Of a stretch of DNA of 64,000 nt, positions 8,722 through 58,993 are shown piece by piece. The notes below the pieces were generated by a model. It had not been told where the DNA came from. It did no database searches and saw nothing but the letters and a program-made list of their open reading frames with translations. The DNA lies in assembly GCA_947629235.1 (NCBI GenBank), contig CANRCX010000003.1, forward strand, positions 9,069-73,068. Direction: 5' to 3'. A program made the translations under genes and the position numbers. Positions within the stretch are counted from its first letter, which is position 1, and every line of letters begins with the position of its first letter. The stretch is from an uncultured Bacilli bacterium. Its GTDB lineage: Bacteria; Bacillota_I; Bacilli_A; RF39; UBA660.

Positions 8722-9458
8722 TGAAAAAACAAGAAATAGCAATATCAGTTAATGATTTACATGTGTATTATAGAGATATGAAAAGATTTTCTCTTAAAAA
8801 AGGTTTTAAAGATAAAGGTAGTGGAAAAATATTTAAAGCAGTAAAAGGTGTATCTTTTGAAGTACCAAAAGGTCAGATACTTGGTATTTGTGGTAAAAAT
8901 GGTAGTGGTAAAAGTACATTATTAAGAGCAATATCTGGTATATTTTCACCTGATAAAGGTAGTATTAATTTACATGGTAATTCAATATCATTACTATCTA
9001 TTGGAGTTGGATTTCAAAAACAATTAACTGGATATGAAAATATATATTTATCAGGTATGTTACTTGGTTATAATAAAGCACAAATTGATGAAAAAGTAGA
9101 TGAAATAATAGAGTTTTCTGAACTTGGTGAATTTATATATAGACCAGTTAGAAGTTACTCAAGTGGAATGTACTCAAAACTTGCATTCTCAATAACAGCA
9201 ATATTAGAAACTGATATAATGTTAATTGATGAAGTTCTAAGTGTAGGAGATGTACATTTTAAAGAAAAAAGTTATAATAAAATGAAAGAATTAATAAGTG
9301 ATTCTAATAGAACAGTAGTAATCGTATCACATAGTACAAATACAATAGTAGACTTATGTGATAAAGTTATTTGGCTACATGATGGATTAATAAAAGATGA
9401 AGGTGATCCAGCTAAGATAATGGCTAAATATGAAGAATTTATGAGAGAAAATGCATAA
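8721..9458 (+). CDS. tagH: teichoic-acid export ABC transporter ATP-binding protein
   Basis: Walker A GKNGSGKSTLL, signature YSSGMYSKLAF, Walker B IMLIDEVLSVGD. Confidence 0.8.
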   Translation: MKKQEIAISVNDLHVYYRDMKRFSLKKGFKDKGSGKIFKAVKGVSFEVPKGQILGICGKNGSGKSTLLRAISGIFSPDKGSINLHGNSISLLSIGVGFQKQLTGYENIYLSGMLLGYNKAQIDEKVDEIIEFSELGEFIYRPVRSYSSGMYSKLAFSITAILETDIMLIDEVLSVGDVHFKEKSYNKMKELISDSNRTVVIVSHSTNTIVDLCDKVIWLHDGLIKDEGDPAKIMAKYEEFMRENA

Positions 9459-45505: not shown

Positions 45506-45534
45506 TTGACAAAATCATATAAATGTAATAAAAT
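45506..45534 (+). promoter_or_regulatory. gpsB promoter (TTGACA-17-TAAAAT)
   Basis: TTGACA 45506..45511, TAAAAT 45529..45534. The TTG that the ORF track uses as a start is the -35 box. Confidence 0.6.
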
Positions 45535-45559
45535 TATCGTGGAAGAGAGGCTAAAAAAG

Positions 45560-45877
45560 ATGTATGAAGACAAAAGAATGTTAACTGCTAAGGAGATACT
45601 AGAAAAGGATTTTAAGGTTGATGCTAGGGGATATAGACCACAAGAAGTGGATCAATTTCTTGATATAGTAATTAAAGATTATGTAACTAGTGAAAATAAT
45701 GAAAAAAAATTAATAAATGAAATTAGAGCATTAGAAAATGATAATGCTAAATTAAAATCTGAAATTAGAAAGCTTAAAGCATCTTTAGATATAGCTGGCT
45801 CTAACAAAGGAATTACTAATGTTGACTTATTAAAACGAATTAGTGATTTAGAAAAAGTAGTATATGGAGAAGAATAA
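45560..45877 (+). CDS. gpsB: cell-cycle protein GpsB (DivIVA-domain)
   Basis: LTAKEILEKDFKVDARGYRPQEVDQFLDIVIKDY and C-terminal DLLKRISDLEKVVYG parallel B. subtilis GpsB. ATG 45560 follows GGAAGAGAGG. Confidence 0.88.
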   Translation: MYEDKRMLTAKEILEKDFKVDARGYRPQEVDQFLDIVIKDYVTSENNEKKLINEIRALENDNAKLKSEIRKLKASLDIAGSNKGITNVDLLKRISDLEKVVYGEE

Positions 45878-46222
45878 TTCTTTAGACAAACGCTGCATAT
45901 AATGTAGAGGAAAGTCCATGCTCACTCATTCTGGAATGAATGGTAATGTTCGTGCTAAGGGAAAAAATAACCTTAGGTAATATAGAAATATATTAACGGC
46001 TTTGAAATAATCAAGACCTGATTAGAGTAAATATAAAAGTGCCATAGAGACGATAATTATTAGGAATAATAATGGTGGAACGAGGTAAACCCCACGAGTG
46101 AGAAACCTAAATTTGGTAAGGGAACTCTTACGAATGAATAATAAAGGAGTAAGGGAAAGAGAAATCTTTAGATAAATGTTTGTCGCCCATTTATGGGTAC
46201 AGAACATGGCTTATTAAGAATT
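45878..46222 (+). ncRNA. rnpB: RNase P RNA, bacterial type B
   Basis: GAGGAAAGTCCATGCTC at 45907, GGTGGAACGAGGTAAACCCCACGAGTGAGAAACCTAAATTTGGTAAGGGAAC, and 3' ACAGAACATGGCTTATTAAGAA all parallel B. subtilis rnpB. It lies directly downstream of gpsB, as in B. subtilis. Ends are approximate, within about 5 nt. Confidence 0.9.
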
Positions 46223-49638: not shown

Positions 49639-49641
49639 TTG

Positions 49642-49667
49642 AAAATGAGTAATTCTCATTTTTTTTG
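49642..49667 (+). terminator. intrinsic terminator
   Basis: AAAATGAG taatt CTCATTTT followed by a T-run. Confidence 0.6.
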
Positions 49668-49689
49668 TTCATAACTAATTTTATTTTTC

Positions 49690-49718
49690 TTGTAAAAGAA
49701 AAATACTTAGTTTATAAT
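49690..49718 (+). promoter_or_regulatory. promoter (TTGTAA-17-TATAAT) of the giant gene
   Basis: TTGTAA 49690..49695, TATAAT 49713..49718. Confidence 0.5.
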
Positions 49719-49754: not shown

Positions 49755-52700
49755 ATGATAAAAAAATTAACTTTAGAAGAATTTCAACAACTAAGAAATC
49801 AAATAGAAAATTTTATCAATCAGATATTAGAATATATTAATGTTCATAAAAATGATGATAATTTTGATTCAAATACATATCAGCAAGAAATGCTTGAGCA
49901 AATTTTTTCATTGCAAAATAATTTGTTAAGTTATGATTTAAGTGATATTCCATTTGAAGCATGGAAAGGTTTTTCTATATTTTCTGATAAAGATCATATA
50001 GTTGATTTTTCTAAAACTAAAGCAAATATTGATTTTGAATTAGTAAATTATACTCCAGATGCTGAAAACTTAAATTATAATTTTAAAGGTTGTAATATTA
50101 GAAATTTATATATATTAGCAGGTGAAAGATTAATTCCAGATAGATTTGATGAAGAAACAATAAAAAAGAATCCATCTTTATTTTTGACAGATATATTTAG
50201 TGAAGAAATTAAAGATAGATATTATAGTCATTCTTTAACTTTAGATGATTTAGTAACTTTATCAAATGAACAATTGAGTGAAATAAAACAAAAAAATTAT
50301 AATTCTAATCGTTGGAAAAAAGAAATAAATGACAAATTATTAGAAACATTTGGTCTTGATAAAATTATTGAATTAATTAAATATTCCAAAGAAGACTACC
50401 TTGCTATTAACGATATAATAGAATCTTTAAAACTAGGTGATTTTATTTTTTCTTATTGGGATTATGAATATGATCCTGTATTTTTAAAATTTTTAGAAAG
50501 TGTTAAAAATACAGAATTTTCAAAACTAAAAAATATTTTTTATGATTTTGCTAGAGATATTTTAACAGGGAAAATCCAAATAGATAACTTTTCTGGGACT
50601 CAAATTATTAATGAAAAAATTTTTCCAGAACAATTTGTTAAAGAAAATCCTGATTTATTTTTGATAAATATTAATGTACCTGACGAAGTTAAAAACAGAT
50701 TTTTTGAAAAAAAATTAACTTATCAAGATTATATTAATTATATGGAAGAATTTAAAAATGTTCCTGTAGATTATTTTACAGAGTTCAAGAATATTTTTAT
50801 ATTTGTAGTTAACAATAATTATGATATAGATGAATTTCATAATATATTACAAAGACATTCTGATTTATTTTTACACATATCTGAGAATCATGAATTTTCA
50901 GCATTTTTCCAATTTTTTAAACAAGGTGGGGATTTAAATAGTGTTTTTACTAATGCAGTTAAAGAATATTTTTATAAATATAGTATGCCAGATGATTTTA
51001 GAATTGTAGAAGCAGATGGTCAAGTTAAATTTAATGTTCCAGATTGGTTATCATCTATGAATTTTAAATTTGTAGATAAAATTAATACTTCAGAGGAATT
51101 ATTAAAATGTGATGGTTCAGTTTTTGTAATAGATGAAGATCAAAGAAGAGTTTTAGATACACTTAATATACAAAACATAAAAAGATTTGAACAAGAAACA
51201 GGATTTTTTACTCATAAAGTTTATGAATGGTCAAAAGATTTAGAAATGTTTAATCTATTTGGTCTTTATTTAAAATCTCACAACTTAAATTCATTAGGAA
51301 TAGATTTTAAAAATGGAAATTTAACATATGAAGATTTTTTAGATCAATTAGCTAAATGTTTAGATAACATGAGAAAAAATAATGTTTTTAGTGATTATCC
51401 AAATTATGATTGGATTCAGGGTGAATTTAGAAATGCTCATCCAGAAATATTTATAGATCCAAATGCACCAAAAGAATTGAAAGATGCATTTTATAAAAAT
51501 CGAATAACTCCAGATTTTTTATTTCAACAAGAAAAATATATTCCATATTTAGTTGATAAAAATTTATCTAATACTTTAAAAGTGGAAATTAAAATAATAT
51601 TACCTGGATTAGAAAATGAGTATTCTTTATTACCAAATTATTTAGATTTTATAGATGAATATGCTTCAAGATATGGAAATGAAAAGTTGTTAAAATTAAT
51701 AACTGAATATGGTGAAATGCTTTCTAATATTACTATATCTAGTATAAATAATGAAATAGAAGATGAGCAGGCTATAAAAAAGTCATTACGAAATTCTATT
51801 TATAAAAAAATAATAGCAGGAAAAATGAATTATTCTTATTTAAGTAATATTCCAGAAATGGTTGAAGAGTATCCTGATATATTTGTAAATTTTGATTCAT
51901 TAACAAATATTCCACAAGAAGAAAGAGTAAGATTAACTAATGCATTTTATAATAGAAAATTTCAATTTAATGATATAAAAAAATATCCAGAATTGGTATC
52001 TATTCTTAAAGATAAGAACTTGCTTATTGCTTTTGGGAGTAAAGATGGTGAACATAAAAATGGTAGAATAATAATACCATCAACATATTCTAGAGATGAA
52101 AAATATAGTGATTTAGAATTATTATCAGTATTTGGTAATGATAAATTTTTGCAATTATGTTCTAAATATGGTAGATATTTAGATGATATTACCCAATATT
52201 TAAATAAAGAAGTTACTATAAAAGATGGAAAATATATTGATTCTAGTAGTGGAAAATCAGAAGAATTAACAATTGATGAAATAGAAAATAGAATAATAAA
52301 TATAATAAAAAAAGAAAGTAAACGTGGTAATATTGATTATCTTCCAGATGATGCCCCTGATTTTTTAAAAGAAAGTCATCCTGAACTATTTTTAAGTGAT
52401 GATGCCCCAGAAGAATTAAAGAATTATTTTTATAATAAGCAGCATTTGACATTTGATGTATTACATGCTCATAAAGAATGGCTACCATATTTAAAAGGTA
52501 AATCAATAGTAACTCCGTTACTTAGAGCTAATATATTAAAAAAAGATTTAATTAAATTTATAGAAATATTTGGTGAAGAAAAAGCAATAAAACTTGGAAT
52601 TAATAGATCAGAAACAGTTATGGAGATGATAAAATCACATCAAGTTGATTTAATGAAAAAATGGTATGATAAAACAGGTGGTAAATTTATTCCTGATTTT

Positions 52701-54689
52701 GTTGTAATGCAAAATTTTAACATTGAAGAAGCAGATAAATTTTTAATATCTGGATCAAATTGGAGTAATTTGATGAAAATTCAAAGTTTTGCTGAAACTA
52801 GAGAGTCAAGAGATGCTATGTTAAAACTTGCATATTCTTTTGGTGCTTTTGATCAAGATAAAAGAGGATTTAAAAAATTACAAGATTTATTAACTGGTCT
52901 ACCAAGAACTATTAATGCAAGTTATTCCCATATTATAGAAAGTTTTCCATCATTAGAAAAGTTGCAGTCTGAAGATAATTTTACTGAATTATTTGGATAT
53001 GATAAATATATAAAATTAGGTGAAACATTAAGTAAAGAAGGATTTTCATTTGATTCAGGGAAAAACTTAATAAGTCAAATATATAGAAAAAATGCAGATG
53101 GTTCTTATTCTTTAACAATTAATCCTCAAAGTTATCCAAAATCCAGTCAGTTAATTAGAAGTATTATGGAGATGTATCCAGATTCTCCTATTTTAACACC
53201 AACTAAAGCACATAAATTCTTTGGTGGTTTTAAAATGGAGTATAATCCTGACTTTAGAGAGTTCTTTCTAAAAAATTATGATATTATCATTAATAATAGT
53301 GATTATTTGTCAAAAATTTCTGCTGTGCAACGTAGATTTAATGAAATTAAAACTGTGTATTCTAATGTTAATTTAACACTAGATTTAGCAGTCAGTTATA
53401 TTGACAGTAATAGATATGAAAAAGTTAATGTTGGAAACGAAAGAGTTGCTACAGCAGCAGCAGTACAAAATTATTCACAGCAAGAGTTTGAAACTCTTCA
53501 AACTATTTACAATTATGGTAAGCAGAGAACCTTTAGTAGTATTCCTAGAGTTGAGTCAAAAAGTGAAGTAAGTCTTCCAACAGGTAGTTATTACTATGAA
53601 ATGTTGAGACTTGATGATCCTAGAGCTATGTCAATAGGATTTGAAAGTGATTGTTGTCAACGCTTAAGTGAGCCAGCAGAACTTTGTATGGAACATAGTA
53701 TGGTTGATAAAAATGGTAGAGTATTTGTTATTACTAATAAGAAAGGTGAAATTGTAGCTCAAAGTTGGGTGTGGAGAAATAAAGATGTTTTATGCTTTGA
53801 TAACATTGAAATACCAGATCAAAAAATGTGGGATAATGGGGTTCCAAGAGGAAAGGAAGATTCAGGAATAAGAAATCAGTTTACTGATGATGTATTGTCT
53901 ATTTATAAGATGGTAGCTTCAGAATTGATTACTAAAGATGAAAAAATCTATAAGGAACTTTTAGAAAGTGGGAAAATAACCAAGGAACAATATGATGGAT
54001 TAAGACTAGGAAAAATTACAACAGGGCTTGGTTATAGCAACATAAAAGGTTCTTTAAGAACGTTACCTATTGATAACTCAGCTATATCAAGACCATTGCC
54101 TTTTTATGAACCTGTAAAATTGTCTAAAGGGCTTTATATAAACGATTCTACTACTCAATTTATTTTAGAAGAGAGAAAAGATAGAAAAAAAATAGATGGT
54201 GAAACACTTGCAGTACATAGTGATGATTATATAGAATATAATGATTCTAACTTTACAGAAAAATCTTTGCATTCTTTAGAAAAATTAGAAGCAATAACTA
54301 AAGATAATCCTAGATATTTAGATACTTCAATAGATGATGAACCTGAAAAGTTAGAACATATAGTATCTAATATAGCAAGAAATTATCAATTAAATCCTGA
54401 AACAACAAGAATAGTAATGAATCCAAATTTTGCTATTATATATGATGTTAACAATAATAAATTGAAAATAGGAGATTTATTATTTAATACTAAAGTAGAT
54501 AATGACACCCAACAATTAGATATAGAACATGCAGTTGTTATGCAAATTAAATTGGCTTTAGATCAAATTGCTAATGGTAAAGAAATTGATATTTCATCTT
54601 TAAGTGAAAAACAACAAGAAATGTATGAAAAAGCAATTTTATTAAAAGATGAAATAGATAAAGAAAGAGGTGTTGGACATGTTAGATGA
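49755..54689 (+). CDS. giant (1644 aa) uncharacterised cytoplasmic protein with divergent tandem repeat modules and a Cys/His-containing C-terminal domain
   Basis: Uninterrupted ORF. ATG 49755 is preceded by GGTGGTG Shine-Dalgarno; upstream codons of the ORF track start overlap the terminator and promoter. Recurrent motif hP(E/D)(L/I)F...(A/V)P(E/D)E(L/V)K..(F/Y)(F/Y) at 50166, 50643, 51432, 51867 and 52374. No signal peptide or TM segment. Confidence 0.7.
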   Translation: MIKKLTLEEFQQLRNQIENFINQILEYINVHKNDDNFDSNTYQQEMLEQIFSLQNNLLSYDLSDIPFEAWKGFSIFSDKDHIVDFSKTKANIDFELVNYTPDAENLNYNFKGCNIRNLYILAGERLIPDRFDEETIKKNPSLFLTDIFSEEIKDRYYSHSLTLDDLVTLSNEQLSEIKQKNYNSNRWKKEINDKLLETFGLDKIIELIKYSKEDYLAINDIIESLKLGDFIFSYWDYEYDPVFLKFLESVKNTEFSKLKNIFYDFARDILTGKIQIDNFSGTQIINEKIFPEQFVKENPDLFLININVPDEVKNRFFEKKLTYQDYINYMEEFKNVPVDYFTEFKNIFIFVVNNNYDIDEFHNILQRHSDLFLHISENHEFSAFFQFFKQGGDLNSVFTNAVKEYFYKYSMPDDFRIVEADGQVKFNVPDWLSSMNFKFVDKINTSEELLKCDGSVFVIDEDQRRVLDTLNIQNIKRFEQETGFFTHKVYEWSKDLEMFNLFGLYLKSHNLNSLGIDFKNGNLTYEDFLDQLAKCLDNMRKNNVFSDYPNYDWIQGEFRNAHPEIFIDPNAPKELKDAFYKNRITPDFLFQQEKYIPYLVDKNLSNTLKVEIKIILPGLENEYSLLPNYLDFIDEYASRYGNEKLLKLITEYGEMLSNITISSINNEIEDEQAIKKSLRNSIYKKIIAGKMNYSYLSNIPEMVEEYPDIFVNFDSLTNIPQEERVRLTNAFYNRKFQFNDIKKYPELVSILKDKNLLIAFGSKDGEHKNGRIIIPSTYSRDEKYSDLELLSVFGNDKFLQLCSKYGRYLDDITQYLNKEVTIKDGKYIDSSSGKSEELTIDEIENRIINIIKKESKRGNIDYLPDDAPDFLKESHPELFLSDDAPEELKNYFYNKQHLTFDVLHAHKEWLPYLKGKSIVTPLLRANILKKDLIKFIEIFGEEKAIKLGINRSETVMEMIKSHQVDLMKKWYDKTGGKFIPDFVVMQNFNIEEADKFLISGSNWSNLMKIQSFAETRESRDAMLKLAYSFGAFDQDKRGFKKLQDLLTGLPRTINASYSHIIESFPSLEKLQSEDNFTELFGYDKYIKLGETLSKEGFSFDSGKNLISQIYRKNADGSYSLTINPQSYPKSSQLIRSIMEMYPDSPILTPTKAHKFFGGFKMEYNPDFREFFLKNYDIIINNSDYLSKISAVQRRFNEIKTVYSNVNLTLDLAVSYIDSNRYEKVNVGNERVATAAAVQNYSQQEFETLQTIYNYGKQRTFSSIPRVESKSEVSLPTGSYYYEMLRLDDPRAMSIGFESDCCQRLSEPAELCMEHSMVDKNGRVFVITNKKGEIVAQSWVWRNKDVLCFDNIEIPDQKMWDNGVPRGKEDSGIRNQFTDDVLSIYKMVASELITKDEKIYKELLESGKITKEQYDGLRLGKITTGLGYSNIKGSLRTLPIDNSAISRPLPFYEPVKLSKGLYINDSTTQFILEERKDRKKIDGETLAVHSDDYIEYNDSNFTEKSLHSLEKLEAITKDNPRYLDTSIDDEPEKLEHIVSNIARNYQLNPETTRIVMNPNFAIIYDVNNNKLKIGDLLFNTKVDNDTQQLDIEHAVVMQIKLALDQIANGKEIDISSLSEKQQEMYEKAILLKDEIDKERGVGHVR

Positions 54690-55767
54690 TAATGATATTA
54701 GTAAAATAATTTCAAATGCTTTGCAAGTAAATAAAGAATTATTGAGTGAAAATATAACTGCAATAGTAGATCAAATTAAAACAACTTTAAAAAATAATAA
54801 AGAAACCATAAAACAAGCAAATGAAATTGATAAAAAAAATAATAATGGTTTTATATTAGATTTTAATGTTATTAATAATATATTTTCAAATTTAGAAAAA
54901 GAAAATTTATTTTATGGTGATGTTACACTTTCACAGAAAGATGAAGAAAGCAATATAATATATGGAACTCAAATAATGGATTATGGAAATGTAGTAATTA
55001 TAAATGATGGGAATCCATATATAATAATAGAAATGATAGTTAGAAATATAATGGCTGGAAATACAACAATATTTTCAAATGATGGTTTTATGCTTGGAAC
55101 AAATCAATTATTAATACAAATAGTTCAGAGTGTATTAGAACAATTTAATATATCTAAATATTTGATACAAATATATATATCAGAGAAATTTGATGAATTA
55201 TTATCAAATTATGCAAATATTGATTTAGTTGTTTGTATTGGAAATAATGATTTACAAAATCTTATTTTAAGAAAATCAAAAAATAGGACTATTATTAGTG
55301 GTTATGAAAATTTTGATTTATATATTGAAGATGATTCACATATAGAATTTTTAAATAAAATATTAAATACAGGATTAAATATTCAATTGTATGTGAATAA
55401 TAATATTGATTTAGATTATTCAAATACTATAATAGTAGATGATCTAGAAGAAGCAATTTCTCAGATAAATTATAATGGTAGTGGATATAGTTGTGCTATA
55501 TTTACAAGTTCAACAGAAAATGCATCTAAATTTATTAGAGAAGTAAAATCAAAAATAGTGACTGTTAATACTAGTCCTACTATTGAAAGAATAATTGATA
55601 TTAAACAAAATGATTTAATTAATGAAAAAACTATAATATATCCATTTAGTTTTAAATTAGATGGTAATACTATAGATATAAAAGAAAATGAAAAATTAGA
55701 TAAAAAAAATAATGTTACTAAATTTAAAGAATTAAATAATCAAGATAGCGAAGATATAAAAAATTAA
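54679..55767 (+). CDS. gamma-glutamyl-phosphate-reductase-like (ProA/ALDH-fold) protein, apparently lacking the catalytic Cys segment
   Basis: [31 protein letters not shown] vs ProA [46 protein letters not shown] vs [59 protein letters not shown] vs VDSLDEAIDHINTYGTGHSESIVT..AQRFLNEVDAAAVYVNAST. ATG 54679 follows an AAGAGG Shine-Dalgarno and overlaps the giant ORF by 11 nt. Confidence 0.45.
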   Translation: [362 protein letters not shown]

Positions 55768-55872: not shown

Positions 55873-55949
55873 GGGGAATTAGCTCAGTTGGCTAGAGCAT
55901 CTGCCTTGCACGCAGGAGGTCGCGGGTTCAAGTCCCACATTCTCCACCA
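55873..55949 (+). tRNA. tRNA-Ala (anticodon UGC), CCA encoded
   Basis: Cloverleaf by hand: acceptor GGGGAAT/ATTCTCC with the G3-U70 Ala identity pair, D arm GCTC/GAGC, anticodon stem TCTGC/GCAGG with loop CTTGCAC, T arm GCGGG-TTCAAGT-CCCAC (one C-A mismatch), discriminator A, CCA. Confidence 0.9.
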
Positions 55950-55959
55950 ATTAGAAACT

Positions 55960-55990
55960 AAACCCGAAATCTTAAATTTCGGGTTTTATA
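55960..55990 (+). terminator. intrinsic terminator after tRNA-Ala
   Basis: AAACCCGAAAT cttaa ATTTCGGGTTT 11-bp stem followed by T and AT-rich sequence. Confidence 0.6.
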
Positions 55991-55997
55991 AATAAAC

Positions 55998-56191
55998 AAA
56001 GAGAAAGAAATAGTAGTGTGTCCTCTTGTTTCAGTGAGTTGCCGGTAAGTGCAAGGCAATAATAATGACATATGAATGAATCTTTTGAGTTTAAATGTAA
56101 TATCTGCATTAAAGATAAATGAGTGCATAGAAATTCTATGAAATAAGGTGGTACCGCGTATTCCACGTCCTTATATTTATAGAATTTTTTT
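55998..56191 (+). promoter_or_regulatory. T-box riboswitch leader of argS
   Basis: Stem I elements (AGAGA K-turn region 56000, AGTA S-turn 56012, AGTGA bulge 56032). Conserved T-box sequence AAATAAGGTGGTACCGCG at 56141..56158. Terminator TTCTATGAAATAAGG (56134..56148) / CCTTATATTTATAGAA (56169..56184) followed by T7. Confidence 0.85.
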
Positions 56192-56208: not shown

Positions 56209-57870
56209 ATGAAAGAATATATTAGTTTAAAAATTAAAGAATTATTAAATGCAAAAGAAATTAAAGTAGAAATACCACCTAAAGATGATATGGGAGATTA
56301 TAGTGTACAATGTGCATCTTTAAGAAATGAAGAGCATAATAATCCAGTTGAAATAGCTAATTATATAAAAGAAAACTTTAATGATGATAAAAAATATTTT
56401 AATGAAATTAAAACAATTGGTCCTTATGTAAATTTCTATTTAGATTATAATGTATTTAATAAAAATATTATTAATGAAATAGAAAATTCTAAAAAATATG
56501 GATCATTAAATCAAGGAAATAATGAAGAATTATTAATAGAACATACATCAATTAATCCAAATGCTGAGCCACATATTGGAAGATGTAGAAATAGTTTAAT
56601 CGGTGACTTTATGAGTAATTTATATAAATTTACTGGATATAAAGTACAAAGACATTATTTTATAAATGATTTAGGTAAAAAAATAGCTTTATTAGTAATT
56701 GGTATAGAAAAATATGGACTTACAAATGCTGATTTTTCTTCAATATTAGATGTATATGTAAAAATAAGTGATGAAGCTAAGAATGATGAAAAAATTGAAG
56801 CACAAGCTTTTGATTATTTAGAACTTGTTGAAAATGGAAATAAAGAAATGATAGATAAATTCAAAAGTATTACAGATAAATGTGTAGAAGGTCAAATGAA
56901 AATATTTGATGAATTAAATATACATTTTGATGTATTTACTCATGAATCTGATTATGTTTATAATAAATATTTAAAAAATATATTAGATAAATTAAATGAA
57001 AAAGGTAAATTAAAGGAAGATGAGTTAGGTAGATATTATGTTGATTTAAGTGATTATAATATTCCAACTAAAGAACCAGTATTAGTACTTACTCGTTCTA
57101 ATAAAACATCATTATATCCAATTAAAGATATAGCTTATACTATGCATAAAATGGACTTAAATAGTAAAAACAATTTTATAGTTCTTGGAGAAGATCAAGA
57201 AGTTTATATGCAACAAATAAGTGCAGTATTAGATATTTTAGGATATAAAGCTCCAGAACTTATAAGTTATTCATATGTATTACTAGATGGAGATAAAATG
57301 AGTACATCAAATGGTACTGTAGTTTTAGTTACTGATTTTATGGCCGCTGTAAAAGAAACGTTACTTAAAGAATTTGAAAAGAGAAACACTAAGATTTCAG
57401 AAGATAAATTAAAAATATTATGTAATGCTTGTATTAAATTTACTATGTTAAATGTTTCTAAACAAAAAATAGTTAATTTTAATTTAGAAAATGCAACAAG
57501 TTTTAATGGTGAATCAGGTATTTATATTTTATATAGCTTAGCAAGAATAAATTCAATATTAAAAAATAATGATATAAAATTAACAGATGAAATTAAATTT
57601 AATTATGATATAGAAAATAAAATAATAAAGGAACTTTCTTATTTTAGAGAAGTTGTAAACGAGTTATTAACATCTCATGAATCTTCACATTTAACAAAAT
57701 ATATATTTAATTTAACTCAAGAGTTTTCAAGATTTTATGAACAAGTTAATATATCAAATGAAGAAGATCCAGTATTAAAATCATCTAGAATTAAATTATT
57801 AAGATGTATTAGTAAAGTTATTAATGAATCTCTTAGTATTTTAGGTATAGAAAGTGTAGATTATTTATAA
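56209..57870 (+). CDS. argS: arginine--tRNA ligase
   Basis: GDYSVQCA, IGPYVNFYL, EHTSINPNAEPHIGRCRNSLIGD...GYKVQRHYFINDLGKKI (class I HIGH region of ArgRS), DKMSTSNG, C-terminal anticodon-binding domain. Confidence 0.9.
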   Translation: MKEYISLKIKELLNAKEIKVEIPPKDDMGDYSVQCASLRNEEHNNPVEIANYIKENFNDDKKYFNEIKTIGPYVNFYLDYNVFNKNIINEIENSKKYGSLNQGNNEELLIEHTSINPNAEPHIGRCRNSLIGDFMSNLYKFTGYKVQRHYFINDLGKKIALLVIGIEKYGLTNADFSSILDVYVKISDEAKNDEKIEAQAFDYLELVENGNKEMIDKFKSITDKCVEGQMKIFDELNIHFDVFTHESDYVYNKYLKNILDKLNEKGKLKEDELGRYYVDLSDYNIPTKEPVLVLTRSNKTSLYPIKDIAYTMHKMDLNSKNNFIVLGEDQEVYMQQISAVLDILGYKAPELISYSYVLLDGDKMSTSNGTVVLVTDFMAAVKETLLKEFEKRNTKISEDKLKILCNACIKFTMLNVSKQKIVNFNLENATSFNGESGIYILYSLARINSILKNNDIKLTDEIKFNYDIENKIIKELSYFREVVNELLTSHESSHLTKYIFNLTQEFSRFYEQVNISNEEDPVLKSSRIKLLRCISKVINESLSILGIESVDYL

Positions 57871-58079: not shown

Positions 58080-58154
58080 ATGGAAGCACAATGCGGCTTC
58101 GGGGTACGTTGTATAGCGTACGGGAAATAGATGATTTATTCATCTTTTTCTTTT
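58080..58154 (+). ncRNA. candidate small RNA (about 75 nt), convergent with and overlapping the DUF3800 3' end
   Basis: Two GC-rich 5-bp hairpins with 8-nt loops (GAAGC/GCTTC 58083..58100; GTACG/CGTAC 58104..58121), then AGATGA tttat TCATCT (58129..58145) plus TTTTCTTTT. Lies downstream of the orphan promoter. Confidence 0.4.
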
Positions 58155-58993
58155 GGGAAAATTTTTAAACCTTTATTTACAAAATTAGGATAACAATCAA
58201 TTTTGTTTTTAATTAAATTAAATGCCTTATTTTCTTTTTTATATTTTATGTATTGATGTATAGGGTAAGAAAATAAATCAGTAATTTCTAAACCAGCAAA
58301 AGTTGAAGAATGATCATCATACCATTTAGGGTTAAAATATACACCAATTATTTTTGTTTTTAATTCTTTTGTAGAAATTTTATTATTTCCTTTATTATAA
58401 ATAATTTCATAAATATGTTTTAATAATTCTTCATCATCTTTTTTTCCACGTGATTCTAGTATTATAATTCCTTTTTTATAATTATCAGTAGCATAAATAT
58501 ATCTTTCTAATATTAAATCAAATGCTTTTTCATAGATATTATCACTATATCCTTTTTTTATATACTCTTCCATATTGATTGTTACAGAAATAATTTTACA
58601 ATTAATTTTAGATAAAACGTTACTTAAATTAAACATAAAACTATCATAATTAATAATACTATCATTAAATGCGTTATCATGTCGTCTTATATCTCTTGAA
58701 TGAAAACACACATATCTTGATTCATTATGATTATTATCAAAATAATATCCATCTTTCCAATATTTTTCTTTCAATTTACGTATATTATTTCTCATAATGG
58801 AATAATCATATTTTTTAAAAATACAGCCTGTTACTGTAAAATATTTTTCATCATTATCGATTATAATTTCATTTTGAATTTTTTTAGATATATTATTTAT
58901 ACTTCCACTATGTCCATTTTCATCAATAAACATAACATAATCAATATTATTTTTCCAATTTTTAATTTTTTGTGGTTGATTATACCATTCCAT
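58136..58993 (-). CDS. DUF3800 family protein
   Basis: VMFIDENGHSG N-terminal acidic motif and ILESRGKKDDEEL, typical of DUF3800; isolated gene. Confidence 0.6.
   Translation of the reverse strand: MEWYNQPQKIKNWKNNIDYVMFIDENGHSGSINNISKKIQNEIIIDNDEKYFTVTGCIFKKYDYSIMRNNIRKLKEKYWKDGYYFDNNHNESRYVCFHSRDIRRHDNAFNDSIINYDSFMFNLSNVLSKINCKIISVTINMEEYIKKGYSDNIYEKAFDLILERYIYATDNYKKGIIILESRGKKDDEELLKHIYEIIYNKGNNKISTKELKTKIIGVYFNPKWYDDHSSTFAGLEITDLFSYPIHQYIKYKKENKAFNLIKNKIDCYPNFVNKGLKIFPKEKDE

Follow-up and report, generated by a model that had tools for sequence, protein, structure and literature searches.

Analysis of a 64,000-nucleotide stretch of contig CANRCX010000003.1 from an uncultured Bacilli bacterium (positions 9,069 to 73,068; hereafter the window) revealed that a giant gene on the forward strand (49755..54689, 1644 amino acids (aa) plus stop) and the gene that overlaps its 3' end, coding for a truncated, probably non-catalytic homologue of ProA with the aldehyde dehydrogenase fold (54679..55767, forward strand, 362 aa), form a genuine, vertically conserved two-gene module of uncultured low-G+C gut Bacillota. 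An earlier note on this DNA, made from the sequence alone, had pointed to the giant open reading frame (ORF) and proposed that conservation of the adjacent ProA-like gene be checked; indeed, in 69 of 82 loci the giant gene has this partner gene directly behind it, even where the identity of the giant protein is as low as about 30%. By contrast, recA, vanY and argS are not conserved as neighbours. All-against-all clustering of the neighbourhood ORFs recovered the giant gene in 84 loci and the partner in 70, and a third conserved neighbourhood gene was rejected since the next-best ORF cluster was present in 13 loci only. Moreover, in genomes whose giant proteins share 52% identity, the partner proteins share 78%.

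The true start of the partner gene is ATG 54679, which lies 11 nt within the giant gene, and the GTG start at 54670 given in the mechanical ORF list is probably wrong. The Shine-Dalgarno sequence of the partner, GAAAGAGGTG (54663..54672, forward strand), is located in codons 1637-1640 of the giant gene (E-R-G-V) and is kept in most loci, and positions 54663-54689 are dual-coding, as the codons for the giant C-terminus E-R-G-V-G-H-x-R contain both the ribosome-binding site (RBS) and the ATG of the partner. The junction shows the 11-nt overlap in 37 of the 61 distinct loci and a 14-nt overlap in 10 more. The conservation of the giant C-terminus ...ERGVGH(A/V)R is partly due to the fact that its codons form this junction. 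Judged from the sequence, the conserved overlap and the RBS inside the giant gene point clearly to translational coupling of the partner to the giant gene.

Homology of the partner to ProA was recognized with NCBIfam NF001221 (E 5e-19) and the PDB entries 8zok, 4ghk and 1o20, in two partial stretches. The scores are far below the family cut-offs, namely 68.2 bits as compared to 289 for NF001221 and 62.5 as compared to 317 for TIGR00407. Aligned with 8zok, the partner has Asn at the position of the catalytic Cys, and no Cys position reaches 90% conservation among 60 partner sequences (that of the window and 59 from the loci). Given the lack of a catalytic or conserved Cys, the shortened sequence and the far sub-threshold scores, the partner is most simply regarded as a pseudoenzyme. 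It keeps the C-terminal ...S-x-IFT...A-x-x-F...V-x-x-N-x-S... block of ProA; however, with about 335-365 aa as compared to about 415-445 aa it is 60-80 residues shorter, and it is linked to the giant gene and not to proB. Linkage to proB or proC was seen in none of the loci.

The clustered Cys and His residues noticed previously in the C-terminal third of the giant protein belong to a distinct domain (53568..54179, forward strand, aa 1272-1475), for which a GNAT-like alpha/beta fold is predicted. Conservation of the giant protein peaks in aa 961-1040 and 1281-1360 at about 0.75-0.8 mean identity and remains high through the C-terminus, the Cys/His stretch thus being one of the two most conserved parts; the lowest conservation is found in the first two repeat modules described below. 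The signature of this core domain comprises DCCQ (1299-1302), C-M-E-H-S (1311-1315), GR (1321-1322), QSWxWRN (1336-1342), CFDNIE (1347-1352), T-x-G-x-G (1422-1426) and Y-x-x-D-S-x-x-Q (1461-1468). Within the giant-protein family Cys 1300, 1301, 1311 and 1347, four of the eight Cys residues of the protein, are all invariant. In the most diverged set of relatives, which includes a cyanophage protein, C1301, W1338, W1340, C1347, D1349, E1352, T1422, G1424 and D1464 are invariant and Y1281, D1288, Q1302, H1314, S1315, G1321 and R1322 nearly so, while C1300, R1341 and N1342 are nearly invariant in a larger distant set. The proposed Cys and His cluster is therefore borne out for C1300/C1301, H1314 and C1347, together with D1349 and E1352, but not for C1311, a position at which Cys and Ser are about equally frequent among distant relatives.

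An AlphaFold2 model of aa 940-1644 was obtained with a predicted local distance difference test score (pLDDT) of 87.8 and a predicted template modelling score of 0.77. Assignment of its secondary structure by DSSP gave for aa 1272-1475 the element order of GNAT enzymes, beta1-alpha1-alpha2-beta2-beta3-beta4-alpha3-beta5-alpha4-beta6 (model elements E338-344, H350-353, H370-378, E382-389, E394-403, E406-409, H436-465, E481-485, H492-495 and E529-534). All 50 best Foldseek matches in the PDB were GNAT acetyltransferases, with template modelling scores on the target of 0.4-0.6 and probabilities of up to 0.99, among them the histone acetyltransferase module of SAGA, NatD, Gcn5/PCAF, RimI, RibT, SpeG, the tandem-GNAT protein VipF and Eis-like proteins. 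GNAT proteins also recur among the matches in a viral fold library, the best match there being an uncharacterised phage protein (E 3.9e-9 over 583 columns). The structural search suggested previously for the C-terminal part thus returned a GNAT-like fold, with weak matches; the core fold appears to derive from a known superfamily, and the assignment of a GNAT-like fold to aa 1272-1475 is a prediction with moderate rather than strong support. Going by the order of secondary-structure elements rather than by coordinates, the invariant residues would map to the alpha1-alpha2 loop, alpha2, beta3 and beta4. In GNAT enzymes, the alpha1-alpha2 loop, alpha2 and the beta3/beta4 region harbor acceptor binding and the catalytic base, and the beta4-alpha3 loop contributes motif A (Q/R-x-x-G-x-G/A), to which the pyrophosphate of acetyl-CoA binds. 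A weak SHOCT-like segment, ELLESGKITKEQYDGL (aa 1397-1414, nt 53943-53996), is located between alpha3 and beta5 of the core and recurs in distant relatives (E 0.15 in the window protein and 6e-4 in relative P0255, aa 865-891).

N-terminal to the conserved regions, the giant protein carries an array of five repeat modules, all encoded on the forward strand. The previously noticed five-fold motif is not a chance pattern: the expression [HNY]Px[ILV]F[ILV] matches five times, whereas the mean in 5000 shuffles was 0.025 and the maximum two. Self-BLASTP of the giant protein detected no internal matches, and the repeats emerge only with Smith-Waterman comparison plus shuffles and with profiles. Tandem divergent modules, as had been supposed, are supported by Smith-Waterman z-scores between module pairs of up to 10.9 and 14.1, by hhalign and by a hidden Markov model (HMM) of the module. 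For hhalign, the sub-alignments of the modules were cut from a MAFFT alignment that comprised the window protein and 81 full-length relatives, and comparison of module 1 with 2 (E 3.5e-11), 2 with 4 (9e-10), 3 with 4 (6.9e-21), 3 with 5 (1.6e-16) and 4 with 5 (1.7e-11) contrasted with E-values of 0.07-0.7 for the comparison of modules with two C-terminal blocks. The HMM of the motif half detected exactly five significant copies (aa 131-184, 290-343, 555-607, 700-758 and 867-920), and with the module HMM a marginal sixth copy was seen right after module 2 (aa 367-411, E 0.04).

The modules extend over 50145..50390 (module 1, aa 131-212; NPSLFL...EEIKDRYY...LTLDDL...FGLDKIIELIKY), 50622..50855 (module 2, aa 290-367; NPDLFL...DEVKNRFF...LTYQDY), 51417..51713 (module 3, aa 555-653; HPEIFID..APKELKDAFY...YGNEKLLKLITEYG), 51852..52172 (module 4, aa 700-806; YPDIFVNF...RLTNAFY...FGNDKFLQLCSKYG) and 52353..52604 (module 5, aa 867-950; HPELFLSDDAPEELKNYFY...FGEEKAIKLGI). 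The HP-x-hF / AP-x-ELK-x-x-FY / LT..D part and the (F/Y)G-x-EK...L...YG part, which the earlier note had listed as successive segments, are the two ends of one homologous unit and are separated in the alignments by a variable beta-hairpin insert. The module size of about 150 aa given there has to be corrected, as the unit that can be aligned measures about 55-115 aa and contains variable inserts, and the spacing of the motif is irregular (144-264 aa). The number of module copies per relative ranges from one to seven and is most often five.

A protein search yielded 221 homologues of the giant protein. Among the 120 homologues listed, identities are 40-63% and lengths mostly 1,400-1,800 aa, with several shorter proteins covering 57-87% of the query; all are named 'hypothetical protein' and none carries a Pfam domain. 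A scan of one genome per GTDB species detected 138 encoding loci, nearly all of them in gut metagenome-assembled genomes (MAGs) labelled uncultured Bacilli, 'Tenericutes' or Mycoplasmatota and including Clostridium sp. CAG:914, CAG:710 and CAG:571 and Mycoplasma sp. CAG:877. Contigs near-identical to the window stem from rabbit and other gut metagenomes; these are DNA runs, and a search of the indexed runs for RNA-seq data gave none. In accordance with the earlier failure to assign the protein to a known family by sequence, Pfam and NCBIfam scans of the whole protein at E up to 1 gave no significant match, PHROGs and PADLOC gave none, and PDB searches by sequence with full-length and core-only profiles at E up to 10 remained at chance level (epsilon antitoxin, E 0.09; CFAP141, E 0.7). 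The literature searched on giant proteins, RF39, DUF4116 and PcfJ likewise held nothing on the family. Hence, the giant-protein family is undescribed in Pfam, NCBIfam, PHROGs, PADLOC, the PDB and the literature searched.

Beyond this family, 1.84 billion cluster representatives were searched with a profile of aa 940-1644, which detected 2,101 clusters (50% identity) at E<=1e-3 and 297 at E<=1e-30. The distant members of this core superfamily keep the helical region and the Cys/His domain and vary at both ends. Some of them have arrays of DUF4116 (PF13475) where the window protein has its five modules, and in 13 distant or long relatives Pfam analysis yielded nothing beyond DUF4116, present in three of them, and a weak SHOCT match. 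Despite the shared position of the arrays, homology of the window modules to DUF4116 was rejected: the modules have no Pfam match to PF13475, and hhalign probabilities remained below 1% (at most 0.3% for the comparison with the DUF4116 repeats of relatives). Nothing functional on DUF4116 was found in the literature. A homologue search with a diverse core profile returned short fragments only and no new architectures. The cyanophage homologue is the unannotated ORF68 of Microcystis phage MaMV-DC (697 aa; locus L087, 2519-4612), which has the CCQ...QSWxW...CFDNxE motifs and a Tyr at the position of H1314; the 8 kb of MaMV-DC examined have no annotated ProA-like gene. A search seeded with the cyanophage protein returned only close relatives of it, an IMG/VR scan with the patterns CMEHSM and CFDNI detected no relatives, and neither did tblastn against plasmids.

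Several loci carry more than one gene copy. On a 337-kb contig (ENA ERZ28019037; L085, 1-19669) at least five giant paralogues of 1872, 1305, 1222, 1615 and 1693 aa form a head-to-tail series that contains only one ProA-like gene, located behind the first paralogue. This local expansion is striking and contrasts with the family of the window, in which one copy per locus is usual. On a contig that also encodes SpoIVA (L083, 4650-11949), two tandem genes with DUF4116 and core, which have near-identical C-terminal halves and differing repeat arrays, precede a ProA-like gene; the arrangement points to a recent event of duplication or gene conversion in which the repeats diversified. Another DUF4116-type gene has a ProA-like gene upstream of it. 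Two different copies of the giant gene occur in some MAGs (L004/L075, L019/L022 and L036/L063). In L004/L075 the copies share 60% and 33% identity with the window protein, and each comes with a ProA-like gene of its own. These may be either true paralogous pairs or mixed bins.

With regard to function, we tentatively read the module as a putative scaffold-tethered, Cys-dependent acyl-transfer or ligand-binding complex, a reading to which we would give somewhat less than an even chance. The giant protein and its partner would form a stoichiometric complex, as gene linkage and translational coupling suggest. The repeat array may serve as an interaction scaffold positioning a macromolecular target or partner, whereas the GNAT-like core would be the working part with a putative site for acyl transfer or for binding of an acyl or nucleotide ligand. 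This site would be lined by invariant Cys, His, Asp and Glu residues on the alpha1-alpha2 loop, alpha2 and beta4, i.e., the walls of the GNAT active site, and the invariant constellation of the core consists of C1300/C1301, H1314, R1322, W1338, W1340, R1341, C1347, D1349 and E1352. Since motif A is missing and two Cys are invariant, a non-canonical donor or a covalent Cys-acyl (ping-pong) intermediate would be expected, and ordinary acetyl-CoA chemistry would not. The ProA-like protein would be a subunit without catalytic activity that binds a ligand or has a structural role. A more specific version, in which the pair is an unrecognised enzyme complex whose GNAT-derived core has exchanged the acetyl-CoA site for a Cys/His/Asp/Glu centre and would perform thioester-based acyl transfer to a scaffold-held target, appears quite improbable; its donor could be of the gamma-glutamyl type and be passed on by the ProA-like subunit.

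Several observations speak against the proposed acyl-transfer or ligand-binding complex. The GNAT fold matches are weak (E 0.05-0.3), and no GNAT family was matched by sequence with Pfam and NCBIfam at E up to 1 or with PDB profiles at E up to 10. Motif A is missing from the beta4-alpha3 loop, and across the superfamily this loop varies and is rich in gaps; in the window protein the loop after CFDNIE reads IPDQKMWDNGVPRGKEDSGIRNQF and has no conserved G-x-G/A. Gene linkage and translational coupling are the only indications of an interaction with the partner, the databases and literature searched hold no characterised relative, and the invariant Cys and His could equally be a structural metal site.

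Members of the GNAT superfamily (Gcn5/PCAF, NatD, RimI, RibT and VipF) were the only consistent structural matches of the core, and the likeness consists in the predicted order of strands and helices. The giant core differs from them by its own signature (CCQ / MxHS / QSWxWRN / CFDNxE), by the lack of motif A and by the helical scaffold of 1,270 residues that precedes it. MYST-type acetyltransferases (Esa1/MOF) have a GNAT-like core flanked by a zinc-binding Cys/His element, use a catalytic Cys and Glu, and keep motif A. The giant protein resembles them, by analogy only, in combining a Cys/His cluster with an acetyltransferase-like core and in having invariant Cys and Glu near beta4; however, no MYST protein was among the sequence or fold matches listed for its core. 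Three PcfJ-like (PF14284) phage proteins were found among weak viral fold matches with probabilities of 0.2-0.3, and the sequence shares with PcfJ a similar run of strands after an M/R-H-C/S motif. A relationship was nevertheless rejected, as hhalign against PcfJ of pCF10 gave a probability of 0.2% and no Pfam match was obtained.

The missing motif A would also fit a non-enzymatic adaptor or architectural protein, in which C1300/C1301, H1314 and C1347 form a structural zinc site in a degenerate, GNAT-derived binding domain that acts together with a pseudo-ProA. The partner is likewise a probable pseudoenzyme, more than 75% of the giant protein is predicted to be helical repeat or helical domain, the Cys-Cys...C-x2-H...C spacing fits a Cys3His site, and the weak SHOCT-like segment in the core (E 0.15, and 6e-4 in P0255) is in line with such a role. 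We nonetheless consider this rather unlikely: Ser replaces C1311 in about half of the distant relatives, the phage homologue has Tyr for H1314, and the invariant D1349 and E1352 together with R1322, R1341 and two Trp look more like a ligand-binding or active site.

It is improbable, in our view, that the variable repeat arrays are the sensors and the conserved core the effector of a conflict system, i.e., an anti-phage defence or counter-defence pair. Such a role would account for N-terminal arrays that vary between one and seven modules or DUF4116 repeats, for at least five tandem paralogues with a single ProA-like gene on one contig and a tandem duplicate on another, and for the cyanophage-encoded core motif, and in the viral fold library the top match was to a phage protein that is uncharacterised (E 3.9e-9). 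However, PADLOC and PHROG gave no match, relatives were found neither on plasmids nor, for the two patterns used, in IMG/VR contigs, and Pfam scans detected no ATPase, nuclease or other usual effector domain. Furthermore, there is usually a single gene per locus, conserved at full length in 138 species, and the housekeeping neighbours differ between genomes. The mechanism of ProA runs through a Cys thioester, and a metabolic enzyme of glutamate/proline type can be envisaged in which the ProA-like protein binds an acyl phosphate resembling gamma-glutamyl phosphate, or NADPH, while a Cys of the giant protein supplies the thiol in trans. The tight coupling of the two genes and the distribution of Cys, with none conserved in the partner and two invariant in the giant core, would be in accordance with this. 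The idea is purely speculative and very improbable, given that the partner lacks about 60-80 residues of ProA and matches it in fragments, that no locus shows linkage to proB or proC and that a scaffold of 1644 residues would be unexpected for a metabolic step.

The remaining parts of the giant protein, all encoded on the forward strand, were delimited as follows. Two long helices form the N-terminus (49755..49928, aa 1-58; H7-31 and H39-58 in the AlphaFold2 model). The subsequent conserved beta-rich stretch (49929..50114, aa 59-120; YDLSDIPFE...DFSKTKANIDF...NFKGCNIRNL) has short strands in the model and contains D61, L62, S63, I65, W70, S86, A90, N91, D93, F94 and C113 as invariant residues of the family alignment; judged by eye, its sequence looks like a short pentapeptide-type solenoid, while no match to the Pfam pentapeptide profiles was obtained at E up to 1. 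In a confident AlphaFold2 model (pLDDT 86.8), aa 1-995 are mostly helical, and a fold search with this part gave karyopherin-like noise only (probability <=0.03) and no meaningful PDB match. A very conserved helical region (52626..52904, aa 958-1050; WYDKTGGKFIPDFVVMQNF...AMLKLAYSFGAFDQD...LLTGLP) follows the modules, with a mean identity in the family of about 80%. It is also kept in distant relatives, where F978, P980, F996, W1003, G1030, F1032 and P1050 are retained. Most relatives hold an insert of 20-50 residues between the helical blocks (aa 1051-1100, nt 52905-53054), which the window protein lacks. The second helical region of the conserved core (53052..53564, aa 1100-1270) ends in an invariant ...R-x-x-S-S-I-P..., and the protein closes with a last alpha/beta domain (54192..54686, aa 1480-1644), present in the window's own, probably RF39-type, family; an acidic tail takes the place of this domain (aa ~1480-1644) in DUF4116-type relatives.

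The ORF of the giant gene is intact from TTG 49665 or ATG 49755 to the stop codon at 54687-54689 on the forward strand, and the start was set at ATG 49755 because a Shine-Dalgarno-like GGTGGTG run sits just upstream. As claimed previously, it is the largest ORF of the window, the runner-up coding for 872 aa. The gene is kept at full length in relatives. All five motif peptides and four FG-x-(E/D)K peptides quoted previously are in frame, at the positions given or a few residues away; one coordinate differs by a single residue, and the YYYEMLRL... stretch starts at 53589 instead of 53577. The reported lack of a signal peptide and of transmembrane segments is in line with the best 19-residue Kyte-Doolittle mean of 0.87 and with the charged N-terminus, and the giant protein is therefore regarded as cytoplasmic. 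The 'own promoter' of the gene does exist as hexamers (TTGTAA-17-TATAAT, 49690..49718, forward strand) that match at 10 of 12 positions and are plausible; however, in DNA of 22% G+C they are no better than chance, as 72 promoter-like sites in the region compare with 71.3 in shuffles and a promoter scan is uninformative at such base composition. A weak terminator-like element, an AU-rich 9-bp hairpin followed by a T-run (49641..49668, forward strand; -7.6 kcal/mol, z-score -2.5), lies between the vanY-like and the giant gene and was not picked up by a terminator scan demanding G+C. Its location after the vanY-like gene is compatible with a separate transcription start for the giant gene. On the 3' side of the partner, tRNA-Ala(UGC) (55873-55949), a perfect 12-bp palindromic hairpin (55960-55986) and a T-box leader (55990-56175) were detected, the latter directly upstream of argS (56209-57870), and this stretch closes the operon of giant gene and partner.

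The G+C content is 20-28% throughout the window. A class-B bacterial RNase P RNA (45878-46218, 240 bits) is located directly 3' of an ORF with a DivIVA domain (45506-45877) and confirms the low-G+C Bacillota origin of the window, in which the T-box leader before argS is a further Bacillota marker. The GC skew is almost uniformly positive over the first 58 kb and falls to about zero at 58-64 kb, where a DUF3800 protein is encoded (58136-58993, reverse strand). This stretch is possibly an inserted or strand-switched segment.

Gut Bacillota of this kind, with reduced genomes, are frequent in the human and animal gut and have yet to be cultured. The fact that a 5-kb gene is kept intact in at least 138 species with small genomes makes it unlikely that the gene is dispensable. 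For the core superfamily of about 2,100 clusters, the searches run gave neither a Pfam model nor a solved structure nor any functional literature, and the present analysis supplies domain boundaries, a set of invariant residues, a predicted fold and a partner gene with translational coupling. The pair is an instructive case of a Cys-less ProA homologue recruited as the dedicated partner of another protein. If the reading as thioester-based acyl transfer were true, the CCQ...QSWxWRN...CFDNxE domain would found a new catalytic family comprising about 2,100 clusters and present also in some phages.

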